Source of the DNA: a virus
Lineage: Duplodnaviria > Heunggongvirae > Uroviricota > Caudoviricetes
IMG/VR virus record: IMGVR_UViG_3300028805_001692
Span: 45,613 to 109,612 of that record
Direction: 5' to 3' (one strand)
DNA: 64,000 nt
Of this stretch, positions 51,828-64,000 are shown one piece after another (within the stretch, counting starts at the first letter, position 1; each line of letters opens with the position of its first letter). The notes under the pieces were generated by a model. It did not search any database, had not been told where the DNA came from, and saw nothing but the letters and a program-made list of their open reading frames with translations. The position numbers and the translations under genes are program-made.

Positions 51828-51840
51828 TTTCCCACCTTTT
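51813..51840. terminator. bidirectional intrinsic terminator
   Basis: Stem ggtggga / tcccacc, loop gttgatt. A-run and T-run, between convergent gene sets. Confidence 0.5.
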
Positions 51841-53488
51841 ATGCATATTTGTTATTAAGGTCATCCACAATGTCGAATGATAATACATCGTGATGAATTA
51901 TTGAGTTCATACCATATTTAATCCTTATATCAACGAAATATCTCTGAGGTATCAGCATATTGGTGTCAATCATATAAAAATTCTCCACATATGCCTTGTT
52001 TACACCATCCCACTCGATAACATCGATTTCTCTTGTACCATCCTTAACGTACAACCTTATATCAATTGAATCTAGAAGCTGTACTGTGTTGGTACTATTG
52101 TAGCTTGGTCTAGCATTGATAACCAGTTTCCTAATATCACCACGTTTAAGCTGTTCCTTCTCTTTAATACCGCTGATGGTTGGACTGAAGGTTATATTGG
52201 TTGTTGATAGTGAGTTTCCTATGTTAAAGAAATTAGGTGTTGCTCTAACCACAAAATCAAGCTCTACATCGTCCAAAACTGTTCCCTGGTACTGGATATT
52301 GGTCCAGGTGTCGTAAAGCATCGTATCAGCCTCAAAATCGTTTTTAGAGAGTTTTAAATCGATGTAGTAGATACCCTTGGATTGTTTCTTCGACATAATC
52401 ATTGTCATTTCCCTCCCAGAAGCATCCCTAATAATCTCTCCGTCACCGTTCCTAATAGTTACAGTAGGATTAAGTGACAAGTCCTCCAAGTGGTCTCCAA
52501 TGGTACAATATAGGTATAACCTGTTTCTCTTACTCAATACGAAGTTAGACCTGTCATCCATTACAACATCCTCGTATCTGGTTTCAACGAAAGGCTCGAA
52601 AAATGTATTTGTCTTATCTGTAAGCCAACCTATATAATTTTCATATTCACTGTTCGTTATTTCAAGAAGAGGTGAATATGCCATAGCTATACCGTAGTTA
52701 TCAAGTTCTCCAGAAAGGAATTTGTTAAACACGTCTGTAATATCGAGATTTATATTCTCGTTGCCGACATCGAAATGTTGCCTGCCAATTACTATTGATT
52801 CCTCTCCAGCTGCGAACTTGTCGTATTCCTTTGAAAGTTTCTCATTAGTGAATATACCAGGAGCATACTTAAGTGGTCTGCTATCCTCCAGGATTTTAGC
52901 AAGTTCTTTCTTCTGCTCATCTGTAAGGTCTTCAACAGTATCTGCACCAACTGAATCAAGGTATCTATCGGTAATTTCCTCTATCTCATCCTCGTCAAGC
53001 TCATCCTTGTCTCCGTTATCCCACAGGAATCCATTTTGTCTCTGAAACCAGTTGCATCCATCCTCAGAATACAGTCTCTTAGGGTCAATTACCGTCCTTG
53101 AATAAAAGTCAGTATTAAAGAAATTCTTGGAGTAATCAAATCCCTTTCCTCTATCCCAGTTCTTAGGGATAAGGAAGAATATAATATCGAATGATGTTGC
53201 CCTAATCTTCTTATTGTCATTAATGGAACTGGTCTCGCAATCATGAAGCTGTGTAAAGTCTATAGAGCCTGCATTGGTGATATGGAGAGTGTGTTTCATT
53301 TTCTTCATGTCAACCATAACACCTTCTTCCATCAGTTTCTTTACCTTGTTGTGGTCGAAGTACATCAGAACTCTTGACACAATTGTATCATGACCATATA
53401 CCAGTTCTGCGATAGGATTAAGACCTGTATTCAGTTTAGAACCAGATATAATTGTATTGAATTTACTTAAGTATGTCTTGTATATCAT
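51839..53488 (-). CDS. hypothetical protein (549 aa), last gene of the sugar/LRR operon
   Basis: Intact ORF, 12 nt downstream of the epimerase gene on the same strand. Confidence 0.45.
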   Translation of the reverse strand: MIYKTYLSKFNTIISGSKLNTGLNPIAELVYGHDTIVSRVLMYFDHNKVKKLMEEGVMVDMKKMKHTLHITNAGSIDFTQLHDCETSSINDNKKIRATSFDIIFFLIPKNWDRGKGFDYSKNFFNTDFYSRTVIDPKRLYSEDGCNWFQRQNGFLWDNGDKDELDEDEIEEITDRYLDSVGADTVEDLTDEQKKELAKILEDSRPLKYAPGIFTNEKLSKEYDKFAAGEESIVIGRQHFDVGNENINLDITDVFNKFLSGELDNYGIAMAYSPLLEITNSEYENYIGWLTDKTNTFFEPFVETRYEDVVMDDRSNFVLSKRNRLYLYCTIGDHLEDLSLNPTVTIRNGDGEIIRDASGREMTMIMSKKQSKGIYYIDLKLSKNDFEADTMLYDTWTNIQYQGTVLDDVELDFVVRATPNFFNIGNSLSTTNITFSPTISGIKEKEQLKRGDIRKLVINARPSYNSTNTVQLLDSIDIRLYVKDGTREIDVIEWDGVNKAYVENFYMIDTNMLIPQRYFVDIRIKYGMNSIIHHDVLSFDIVDDLNNKYA

Positions 53489-53500
53489 AATACGTATTAA

Positions 53501-63900: not shown

Positions 63901-63997
63901 TTGTTGACCATGTAGAATTATTAAGGCTATACTTCAAAGTGCCATAATCCGTAGAGCCAGCATTCACAAGTTCTTGTGCTTGAGTATTATAAGTCAA
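60986..63997 (-). CDS. giant BspA-type LRR protein (at least 1003 aa; 5' end runs off the window)
   Basis: More than 25 LRR units plus repeated Ig-like modules. The first Met repeats an internal module, so the true start is probably upstream of position 64000. Confidence 0.6.
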   Translation of the reverse strand: MTYNTQAQELVNAGSTDYGTLKYSLNNSTWSTSIPTATNYGSYRVYYKVDGNSNVDDVAAQSVACSINEKQVTATVVLNPTSYTYNGSACEPAVTVKDGSTIIPASEYTVTYSNNVNAGTATVTISDNVGGNYEVIGSTTFVIAKVTPTVVVPTANVLTYNTQAQELVNAGSTDYGTLKYSLDGTNYSTVIPSGIDAGVYIIYYKVEGDSNVNDVSAQSINCTISKADSSLSFTVANLYIRLGETKTNPVIVNVGDGTVTYSSNNPTAVTVDTNGVISCINNGDAIITANISQTNNYNSSSASYAVYYESWDVTVKFNVTSTTTPTIIAEKTDVYYEPHTRFKKIKIDGVVQPSVTTGYTFSTTGEHIVKYMLYYKSFIDSSAFTNCRDAVSISMTNSVTSIGNGSFYNCRSLTSIDIPSGVTSIGNSAFTYCIGLTSIDIPSGVTSIGNRAFETCTGLTSVGTTGSGASVEIPSGVTSIGDGVFRQCYSLTSVTIPDSVTSIGNRAFSGCRSLTSIDIPSGVTSIDGGAFYGCRSLTSVGTTGSGASVEIPSGVTSIRESTFYECYGLTSVTIPDSVTSVGDWAFYNCRSLPSIHIPSGVTSIGNRAFDTCTGLTSVGTTGSGASVEIPSGVTSIGDGVFSQCYSLTSVTIPDSVTSIGESAFYYCTSLTSIDIPSGVTSIGSYAFYDCYSLTSIVIPSGVTSIRESTFYECYGLTSVTIPDSVTSIGNRAFYGCTSLPSIDIPSGVTTIDNYAFARCSGLTSIDIPSGVTRIGDSIFSSCRSLTSITIPDNVTYIGYGAFSGCRSLTSVTIPNSVTSIGNSAFAGCSSLADVTIGSGVTRIGDSIFSSCRSLTSITIPDSVTSIGNEAFAYCTGLSSCTIGSGVTSIGSYAFRDCSSLTSIHIPSGVTSIGYRAFRECNRLTSITISNSVTSIGNEAFDSCRSLTSVTVEATTPPTLSTDAFNSTNNCPIYVPCDSVDTYKAASGWSTYASRIQAIPGSCP
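61140..62830. repeat. long array of 69-bp tandem DNA repeats (LRR units)
   Basis: Near-identical units 'ttaccaatacttgtaacaccacttgg...cttgtaag...' shared with the 55190-55900 and 60180-60330 arrays. Confidence 0.7.
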
Positions 63998-64000
63998 TAC

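Follow-up and report, generated by a model that had tools for sequence, protein, structure and literature searches.

We analysed a stretch of 64,000 nucleotides of viral DNA (IMG/VR record IMGVR_UViG_3300028805_001692, positions 45,613 to 109,612; hereafter the window), in which a block of genes on the minus strand, starting at 51839 and running to the end of the window, places predicted sugar-modifying enzymes beside leucine-rich-repeat (LRR) proteins. The central enzyme is GT516 (58320-59870, minus strand; 516 amino acids, aa), which our profile searches and structure model identify as a fusion of a GT92-like glycosyltransferase (GT) of GT-A type with a divergent Stealth-like domain, the fold of hexose-1-phosphate transferases. 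On jumbo-myophage-type as well as crAss-like contigs, the GT516 gene is linked to genes of fibre-like proteins that carry (Gly-Ser)n tracts, an association that we regard as a strong lead. The explanation that we favour, at a probability somewhat short of even, is that the enzymes of this cassette glycosylate, and possibly phosphoglycosylate, the Gly-Ser hinges of virion receptor-binding proteins.

The two-domain glycosyltransferase GT516

An initial annotation of the block, made from the sequence alone, had described this protein as a GT-A-like glycosyltransferase. The description is correct for the N-terminal half, which is GT92-like, and it overlooked a second catalytic-type domain; the Pfam match to the protein (Glyco_tranf_2_4, E 5e-13) spans residues 12-126 alone. 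A model built with AF2 from 31 homologues (predicted local distance difference test, pLDDT, 90.6) contains two Rossmann/GT-A-type domains with a linker of low confidence between them (residues 243-245), and its Foldseek matches include GalS1 of family GT92 and the two-domain proteins PmHS2, LARGE1, K4CP and COLGALT1. Of these, the heparosan synthase PmHS2, K4CP and LARGE1 resemble the predicted enzyme in having two nucleotide-sugar-using domains in one polypeptide. The N-terminal domain (aa 1-245; 59136..59870, minus strand) has a GT-A fold, a DxD motif (invariant D110-x-D112-E113) and a GT92-like family profile, and the C-terminal domain (aa 262-516; 58323..59087, minus strand) has, in the model, the fold of a Stealth catalytic domain, with E289, D368-D369, H426, P428 and C498-N499-S500 as invariant residues. 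The acidic motifs of both domains are invariant across the 31 homologues.

The affiliation of the C-terminal domain was reached through intermediate sequences. A profile of residues 262-516, searched against 1.84 billion representative proteins, recovered 535 relatives, which are mostly stand-alone proteins of about 250 aa, and among 56 distant relatives Stealth_CR2 was detected in 23 (best match 4.8e-9), CR4 in two and CR3 in one. This intermediate-sequence link to Stealth is the ground on which we read GT516 as a GT92-like GT-A enzyme fused to a divergent Stealth-like domain. The catalytic residues of Stealth proteins, to which GNPTAB and CpsY belong, comprise a CR2 Glu together with an Asn-x-Asp motif (Mg2+ binding), an essential CR3 Arg and the CR4 motif C(L/I)ND (PMC10668966). 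In GT516, D368-D369 lies at the position of the Stealth 'NDD' and is preceded by Thr or Cys, not by Asn; H342 and R472 show no variation, D344 hardly any, R410 is conserved in most of the homologues, and 'C498-N-S' stands in place of CLND. Loose echoes of the CR1 'IDVVYTF' and the CR4 'CLND' are found in the segments LVVLPY and FMCNS, respectively.

Compared with the known Stealth hexose-1-phosphate transferases (Neisseria meningitidis CsaB/CsxA-type, Mycobacterium tuberculosis CpsY and the eukaryotic GlcNAc-1-phosphotransferase GNPTAB), GT516 has no direct match to a Stealth model, and in contrast to the Stealth capsule enzymes it is encoded by a phage, with no capsule export genes beside it. 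Stealth polymerases have been described as single-domain proteins (PMC5974469), whereas the Stealth-like domain of GT516 is fused to a GT92-like GT-A domain. Polymerases of the CslB/Cps1B type combine glycosidic and phosphodiester transfer (PMC5974469), as predicted for GT516, but the phosphotransferase domains of the CslB type are GT-B or TagF-like and not Stealth, and polymerisation by GT516 is putative. In the full-text literature, our searches returned no Stealth-type enzyme in a phage and no Stealth domain fused to a GT-A domain, and nothing specific on glycosyltransferases of rumen jumbo phages.

The GT516 family comprises at least 286 full-length homologues, all of them metagenomic and many on very long contigs. 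A scan with two peptide patterns, covering one genome per species, found the family in only two of 185,579 species genomes. Both of these GTDB matches are contigs of metagenome-assembled genomes (MAGs), L031 (CAMJMP010000002.1) and L032 (CAMJOB010000001.1), which are 99.98% identical over 17.5 kb, were assigned to MAGs labelled 'Tenericutes' and 'Firmicutes', and are 77-90% identical in aligned blocks to the IMG/VR viral contig L007; they are probably phage DNA that was mis-binned. Our verdict on this distribution is that the GT92-Stealth fusion enzyme appears to be phage-restricted. A tblastn search of phages with GT516 gave a single weak match, in a 595-kb uncultured phage, and the best matches of the fold search in BFVD were GT92-type proteins of giant viruses, none of the matches being annotated as Stealth.

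Variation in the architecture of the family was also observed. In contigs from three samples (L001:10706-10708; also L002 and L005), the linker codon that corresponds to E246 of GT516 is an in-frame TAA, which separates the GT92-like and the Stealth-like open reading frames (ORFs), and locus L008 encodes the N-terminal domain only. Longer variants, of about 790-810 aa, occur at L034:5001-7370 and in P0002, P0004, P0005 and P0065; the L034 variant carries a second copy of the N-terminal GT92-like motif, which suggests a GT92-GT92-Stealth architecture.

Gly-Ser tracts and fibre-like neighbours

The gene directly upstream of GT516 encodes the short protein LRR271 (59972..60787, minus strand), in which a (Gly-Ser)n tract lies on each side of the LRR domain. 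The first (GGGGSGSGSGGD; aa 62-73; 60569..60604, minus strand) precedes the LRR domain, and the second (GGGGSGSGSGGGDGGSD; aa 247-263; 59999..60049, minus strand) follows it, next to an acidic tail, and coincides with a weak Pfam 'Serglycin' match. All six-frame ORFs of the window and of 39 loci, about 735 kb in total, were scanned for such tracts with a criterion that was set post hoc. All 13 ORFs with a tract lay within two genes of a full-length GT516 homologue, on either side, and none was found elsewhere; in the first 668 kb, tracts were confined to ORFs that directly flank the homologue. The tract proteins are diverse, being LRR proteins that flank the enzyme on one side or on both in L001, L004, L006, L027 and L029, a Fib_succ_major-like protein of 257 aa in L026, and non-LRR proteins of 265-269 aa in L007 and L031, where the glycosyltransferase is just 47% identical. 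The tract is found at the C-terminus of the upstream neighbour in L034, a crAss-like phage (Crass_capsid), and two genes upstream of GT516 in L038. Tracts are absent from 13 loci that carry g549 (a conserved gene of the phage clade, described below) without GT516, from L008 with its N-domain only, and from the other LRR genes of the same loci, and the full GT516 of L003 is likewise accompanied by no tract. Among ORFs resembling receptor-binding proteins (RBPs), 10 of 14 adjacent to the enzyme carried a tract as compared to none of 19 non-adjacent ones (Fisher p about 1e-5, a value that ignores shared ancestry). As a separate observation, the tract neighbour in L034 (L034:4183-4947) has an in-frame stop at codon 12 ('FETE*AF'), which may reflect stop-codon recoding or a later start.

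Three BspA-family LRR proteins with immunoglobulin (Ig)-like modules had been proposed for the block, and LRR_5 (PF13306) repeats were indeed detected in all three: LRR1209 (60986..64000, minus strand), LRR738 (55000..57216, minus strand) and LRR271. The respective scores were 599 bits for the truncated LRR1209 (597 for the full protein), 366 and 73.5, compared with a Pfam gathering cut-off of 27.7 (E values of 6e-183 for the truncated LRR1209, 5e-111 and 2e-20). The Ig-like modules are confined to the two long proteins. LRR1209 is composed of MBG/Ig-like repeats (Big-like, E 6e-4) followed by about 25 BspA-type LRRs, and LRR738 of an N-terminal 'MxKYLKxF..NVS' module, MBG/Big_2 repeats (Big_2 E 3e-6) and then BspA-type LRRs; LRR271 has no such module. 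The proposed paralogy was borne out by the identities of 49% over 655 aa between LRR1209 and LRR738 and of 59% over 112 aa between LRR271 and LRR1209. The window holds the 3' 1003 codons of the LRR1209 gene, which had been annotated as an ORF at 60986-63997 running out of the window; its full length is 1209 aa and its start lies 633 bases past the window end (L024:4434-8063). The LRR repeats (window 61168-62825 and 55188-55902) share 75-84% DNA identity within and between LRR1209 and LRR738, and the public ENA contig k141_3364398 terminates within LRR1209, which suggests this gene as a possible site of assembly breaks and of recombination.

The LRR proteins share the LRR_5 repeat and a C-terminal cap motif with the BspA-type LRR adhesins (Tannerella BspA, HupY/LrrG). 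They differ from these adhesins in being phage-encoded, in their phage-type N-terminal modules, and in having no signal peptide, anchor or secretion-system sorting domain; neither a signal peptide nor a transmembrane segment was found in any of the LRR proteins. Because 60 INPHARED records contain LRR_5, this repeat is not new in phages, and a cultured Klebsiella P2-like phage carries an LRR_5-like segment within its baseplate-adjacent 'tail protein I'. Our search of the literature on BspA or LRR proteins in jumbo phages found nothing specific.

The genes that adjoin the block point to a fibre region. Upstream of LRR1209 and on the same strand, the overlapping contig L024 carries three further genes, namely up339, up347 and a fourth LRR_5 gene. 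The up339 protein has coiled-coil repeats of the 'EVITAALNDLEDRK' type and the C-terminal sequence 'DPNTLYIITD', and up347 shares its N-terminal 55 aa and has a different C-terminal part. An up339-like sequence (47% identity over 237 aa) occurs in a fibre-like protein of 1342 aa adjoining LRR genes in the 401-kb relative L004, and the N-terminus of up339 heads a 1149-aa protein in the 327-kb relative L029. Moreover, LRR738 and nine neighbouring proteins served to train a hidden Markov model (HMM) of a 45-aa N-terminal module ('MxKYLKxFxT...LPNVSL..NNTVHYNP'); the model matches LRR738 at 4e-22, and the module is found at or near the starts of further variable ORFs of relatives, including LRR proteins and the GH2, Big_2 and BNR gene positions of L026. 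By analogy, a constant N-terminal module joined to interchangeable binding or enzymatic C-termini would correspond to the usual layout of phage receptor-binding proteins.

Promoter-like sequences also connect the block with tail genes. The 10-mer AAATATTTAT has six exact copies in the window compared to 0.98 expected, a number reached in none of 100 shuffles, and every copy is intergenic. The tail sheath gene, a 662-aa gene, LRR738, GT516 and LRR271 each have a copy at a distance of 17-44 nt before the start codon; the copies in the block, on the minus strand, are at 60823..60832 (36 nt upstream of LRR271), 59887..59896 (17 nt upstream of GT516) and 57237..57246 (21 nt upstream of LRR738), another is at 9304-9313 (44 nt upstream of the tail-sheath gene), and a further site was recorded at 27160-27171. 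Copies with one mismatch precede the tail tube gene and about ten others. The 10-mer is probably a phage promoter element, the units of the block and the tail genes appear to have a common promoter type, and late co-expression of the block genes may be expected from these motifs. The best explanation for the interval as a whole, as far as gene content and motifs indicate, is that it forms part of a variable tail-fibre/receptor-binding-protein region of a jumbo myophage.

Sugar-supply enzymes and the proposed hinge modification

Two proteins of the block, SDR1 (53501..54469, minus strand; PF01370 151.6 bits, E 3e-44) and SDR2 (57311..58312, minus strand; PF01370 153.5 bits, E 9e-45), had been described as nucleotide-sugar epimerases or dehydratases of the short-chain dehydrogenase/reductase (SDR) type. 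Both are extended SDRs with an intact catalytic Ser...YxxxK set, as seen from the motifs GAAGFIA (GxxGxxG), SSS and YGITK (YxxxK) in SDR1 and GAAGLLG (GxxGxxG), SSMS and YGISK (YxxxK) in SDR2, and they are predicted to be NAD-dependent and 4-epimerase-like, the former for UDP-hexuronate or hexose and the latter for UDP-hexose or HexNAc. A Thr-Asp-Glu sequence at the catalytic Ser/Thr position is the mark of RmlB-type 4,6-dehydratases. Neither protein has this motif, SSS(T/M)V being found there without an Asp-Glu pair. The best PDB matches of SDR1 are 5u4q (E 6e-48) and the 6zl6 group (E 6e-39), which we take to be UDP-glucuronate 4-epimerase-type enzymes, followed by the 4-epimerases 4zrm, WbgU, MoeE5 and WbpP, and those of SDR2 are 4zrm, a UDP-glucose 4-epimerase (E 1e-47), and 6dnt (E 2e-32). 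The dehydratase reading was rejected since the motif is missing and the closest PDB relatives include named 4-epimerases. Neither SDR exceeded the cut-off of an NCBIfam equivalog (SDR1, 117 against 760 for TviC; SDR2, 103.6 against 262.3 for GalE).

The third enzyme, Hex (54466..54945, minus strand; 159 aa), is a predicted sugar O- or N-acetyltransferase of the left-handed beta-helix (hexapeptide) type, where the initial annotation had named an O-acetyltransferase (Hexapep E 1e-12; 47.5 bits compared with a cut-off of 27). Its nearest NCBIfam families are LacA, NeuD/PglB and WbbJ, all scoring under their cut-offs, and the versions in relatives are 78-92% identical to it. The set of sugar-supply genes that accompanies GT516 varies, consisting of epimerases and an acetyltransferase here, GHMP kinase, SIS and NTP-transferase/HAD genes in L038, and a radical-SAM protein gene in L029, a variation that fits a diversifying decoration. 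In L038, a 73-kb relative, GT516 is followed by the GHMP kinase, the SIS isomerase and the NTP-transferase/HAD protein (L038:6566-9450), a set that we read as an NDP-heptose-type pathway.

The proposal that we favour can be set out as follows. The LRR proteins would be modular appendages of the virion, in which an N-terminal attachment module is connected to a BspA-type LRR head by a stalk, made either of MBG/Ig repeats or of a Gly-Ser hinge, and they would have multiplied through duplication and recombination. Interleaved with their genes, a cytoplasmic glycan cassette would operate in which the two UDP-sugar 4-epimerase-like SDRs may supply C4-epimerised donors to GT516. This enzyme would use them at two active sites, one a GT92-like GT-A site of inverting type and the other Stealth-like, the latter domain in its known members transferring sugar-1-phosphate with the release of UMP. 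Hex may then acetylate the product of GT516. As acceptor we propose the (Gly-Ser)n tract of the neighbouring fibre protein, which in this block is LRR271, and the predicted product is a Ser-linked, possibly phosphodiester-linked and acetylated glycan on a flexible hinge, where it might shield from gut proteases or tune adsorption, by analogy with the glycosylated linkers of enzymes. The identities of the sugars, the acceptor and the phosphodiester chemistry we infer. A more specific version, which we consider unlikely, is that GT516 and its Gly-Ser neighbour form a mobile two-gene cassette in which the Stealth-like domain places sugar-1-phosphate on the hinge serines and the GT92-like domain extends it.

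Partial precedents for such a modification exist. According to Freeman et al. (2023), as reported in PMC12619734, mycobacteriophage-encoded glycosyltransferases glycosylate virion proteins. From that account, the mycobacteriophage system resembles our proposal in that cytoplasmic phage enzymes modify structural proteins without export; it differs in the enzyme families and in its acceptors, which are the C-termini of capsid and tail-tube proteins and not, as proposed here, the Gly-Ser hinges of fibre-like proteins. The GlcNAc-1-P-Ser of Dictyostelium proteinase I offers, as an analogy only, a precedent for a Ser-linked sugar-1-phosphate. Additionally, a preprint describes a recently imaged environmental 'glycofibril', TLP-2, in which an X-Ser dipeptide repeat bears glycans in phosphodiester linkage (bioRxiv 10.1101/2025.09.30.679562), and this repeated X-Ser peptide is reminiscent of the Gly-Ser tracts, again by analogy only.

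Several findings weigh against this interpretation. The C-terminal domain of GT516, when searched alone, matches no Stealth or other Pfam family at E values up to 10, its profile retrieves nothing among PDB sequences, and its CR1 and CR4 are degenerate at best. The scores of the SDRs and Hex in NCBIfam lie far under the equivalog cut-offs. The placement of the LRR proteins as putative virion appendages is based on context. In PHROGs they match families of 'unknown function' only, bar a weak 'tail protein' match on an Ig-like stretch of LRR1209 (E 9e-6); the Phage_tail_C match of up339 is weak (E 2e-4) and under the Pfam cut-off, and no search of PHROGs, PDB or INPHARED labelled up339 or up347 as 'tail fibre'. 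As for the tract linkage, six further loci fetched as a test showed a tract near GT516 in two cases and none in four, and nine of the 14 GT516 lineages have a tract gene within two genes, the other five having no tract nearby; as all 13 tract ORFs are GT516-proximal, the specificity of the association is high and its sensitivity moderate. Gly-Ser runs are also ordinary flexible linkers, and this alternative together with the post hoc criterion makes the association a strong lead and not proof. Finally, the characterised Stealth enzymes act on glycans and not on protein serine (PMC5974469, PMC10668966).

Among the alternatives, the one that we rate highest, and which we nevertheless consider rather unlikely, holds that enzymes and fibres are not coupled. 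The fibre region would simply be a recombination hot spot that collects accessory genes, the tracts would be plain linkers of one sub-class of small RBPs that happens to be syntenic with GT516, and the enzymes would act on a different target, for instance DNA, some other capsid or tail protein of the virion, or nucleotide-sugar metabolism. Consistent with this, relatives carry the block in mosaic form, GT516 has no adjoining LRR or N-module gene in L035, L036 and L037, where the enzyme is encoded away from fibre genes, the L026 homologue follows the Gp23 major capsid gene downstream at a distance of about 6.4 kb, three other glycosyltransferases are scattered in the window, one of them beside the tail tube gene, and the validation of the tract link in two of six loci was modest. 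What such an absence of coupling does not account for is that all of the tract ORFs lie within two genes of GT516, on both sides and with varied partners in jumbo myophage-type and crAss-like phages, and that the other LRR genes of the same loci have no tracts.

Ranked after the absence of coupling, and quite unlikely in our view, is a remodelling of the host envelope, in which the enzymes would add an acetylated sugar or sugar phosphate to lipid-linked or capsule intermediates of the host, for example to exclude superinfection or to prevent progeny from re-adsorbing to lysed cells, the LRR genes being mere neighbours. In its favour, the set of epimerase, polymerase and acetyltransferase resembles the serogroup-specific part of a capsule locus (region A of Neisseria). 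Bacterial Stealth enzymes make phosphodiester-linked capsule polymers (PMC5974469), CpsY acts on glucan (PMC10668966), and phage glycosyltransferases that alter the serotype of the host are known (PMC12619734). The block had in fact been said to bear the hallmark of Bacteroides capsule and O-antigen loci, a claim that our analysis does not support. No Pfam family of an initiating transferase, flippase, polymerase or exporter (Wzx/Wzy or ABC export) was found among the scanned ORFs of the window, and in the window together with its extension, all 60 ORFs of at least 90 aa have fewer than three hydrophobic segments. Because membrane, export and initiating enzymes are absent, this is not a capsule locus. 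The block also differs from phage seroconversion modules of the gtrABC or Oac type in having no GtrA/GtrC or membrane acyltransferase, its proteins being soluble by hydropathy. The lack of integral-membrane, flippase, polymerase, ABC-export and initiating enzymes in 64 kb speaks equally against envelope remodelling, as do the near absence of the GT516 family from the bacterial and archaeal species genomes in the two-pattern scan, both matches there being MAG-binned copies of a viral contig, and the upstream motif that GT516 has in common with tail genes. Envelope remodelling would also leave unexplained the association of Gly-Ser-tract proteins with the enzyme in different phage families. Of the two readings offered in the initial annotation, the modification of LRR virion appendages by the enzymes is thus the better supported, through the fibre-like neighbours, the occurrence of AAATATTTAT at the tail-sheath gene, the N-terminal module and the tract linkage; nothing specific was found for the modification of host surface polysaccharide.

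The targets already known for phage glycosyltransferases are DNA, the host O-antigen and, in mycobacteriophages, capsid and tail-tube proteins. If the more specific two-gene version is correct, it would amount to protein phosphoglycosylation of receptor-binding proteins by a phage enzyme, and GT516 would be the first protein-directed Stealth-type enzyme outside the eukaryotic GNPTAB and a candidate biosynthetic route for environmental 'glycofibrils'. Hinge modification as such, if correct, would show gut and rumen phages hardening or disguising their adsorption apparatus in a protease-rich and antibody-exposed habitat, add a post-translational layer to the determination of host range, and provide a compact, soluble two-gene system for the site-directed glycosylation of Gly-Ser linkers.

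Organisation and origin of the block and other genes of the window

Every ORF named in the initial annotation is present on the minus strand at the coordinates assigned to it. The interval contains eight genes and not seven, the missed one being g549 (51839..53488, minus strand; 549 aa), which encodes a conserved core protein of the jumbo-phage clade and forms the conserved edge of the variable block. The protein has 791 homologues on contigs of up to 427 kb and no significant match in Pfam, PHROG, NCBIfam or PDB (Annexin_2 was insignificant, E 0.055), and its AF2 model (pLDDT 52) was unusable for a fold search.

The block had been taken for a single operon, a view that is at odds with the signals between them. 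Terminator-like hairpins with T-runs follow SDR2 (57263..57287, minus strand) and LRR738 (54960..54993, minus strand), and a third one, at the end of g549 (51812..51840, minus strand), closes the block. Between LRR271 and GT516, a further hairpin (59912..59933, minus strand; TGAACA-N10-TGTTCA with A9 and T9 flanks) was read by eye and had been missed by the consensus scan. The only likely co-transcribed pairs are GT516-SDR2 (7 nt between the GT516 stop and the SDR2 start), Hex-SDR1 (4-nt overlap) and SDR1-g549 (12-nt gap). The hairpins, together with the AAATATTTAT copies before three of the genes, therefore divide the block into short units, which are LRR271, GT516-SDR2, LRR738 and Hex-SDR1-g549. 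At the level of sequence consensus, the block is best described as a putative cluster of at least four units delimited by promoters and terminators.

The block belongs to a jumbo contractile-tailed phage of rumen type and is not host DNA, which confirms its placement inside a phage. The window encodes a tail sheath of 1168 aa, a gp19-like tail tube protein and a family-B DNA polymerase, and g549 is identical on a JGI contig (3300031994; 45.9 kb, locus L024) and an ENA contig (62.7 kb), a 109.6-kb contig being also listed in its cluster table. Both loci are 100% identical to the window over the block and the adjoining phage genes, and L024 reaches 5 kb beyond the window end. Related phages in IMG/VR and ENA, with sizes of up to about 300-430 kb, carry mosaic versions of the block, in which LRR genes lie on one or both sides of the GT516 homologue, the overlapping Hex-SDR1 pair is conserved and g549 is the conserved flank; the kinds of genes around GT516 recur in relatives of 73-401 kb. 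A megablast search of the block against INPHARED gave zero matches, and a close relative of the window is absent among 50,697 deposited phage genomes. The assumption of a Bacteroides host was not established; some of the related records carry bovine labels. The enzyme types of the block are common in bacterial polysaccharide loci, which would favour an origin from the host chromosome or from a chimeric assembly, but such an origin has a negligible probability and was rejected, as the independent JGI and ENA assemblies are identical and run continuously into phage genes on both sides, homologous blocks lie within viral contigs of 73-401 kb, and the GC content resembles that of the rest of the window (0.33-0.43) except for 0.28 over GT516 (58001-60000).

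GT516 is one of four glycosyltransferases in the 64 kb. A second two-domain enzyme (Glyco_tranf_2_4 and DUF4422, 517 aa; 2320-3873, minus strand) comes directly after the tail tube gene (3951-4439) and three genes downstream of the tail sheath gene; its similarity to GT516 is undetectable, and in L029 the two halves of an enzyme of this type are separate genes within the LRR cluster. The other two are a GT4-like enzyme (phrog_7162; 30490-31704, plus strand) and a Glyco_tranf_2_5 enzyme (36812-37501, plus strand), whose gene is closely preceded by those of a dUTPase (34437-35102) and an IMPDH/GMP-reductase-like protein (35608-36735), and both glycosyltransferases could serve DNA modification or another target. 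Elsewhere in the window, the tail sheath (5754-9260, minus strand) is unusually long, sheath profiles matching only its C-terminal ~360 residues, and a protein at 11083-11949 (minus strand) shows a weak ART-PolyVal (ADP-ribosyltransferase) match under the Pfam cut-off. A DUF723/DUF4379 zinc-finger protein of a kind that is fused to GIY-YIG in the relative L026 is encoded at 41655-42659 (plus strand), and a PhoH-like ATPase at 47785-48591 (minus strand).

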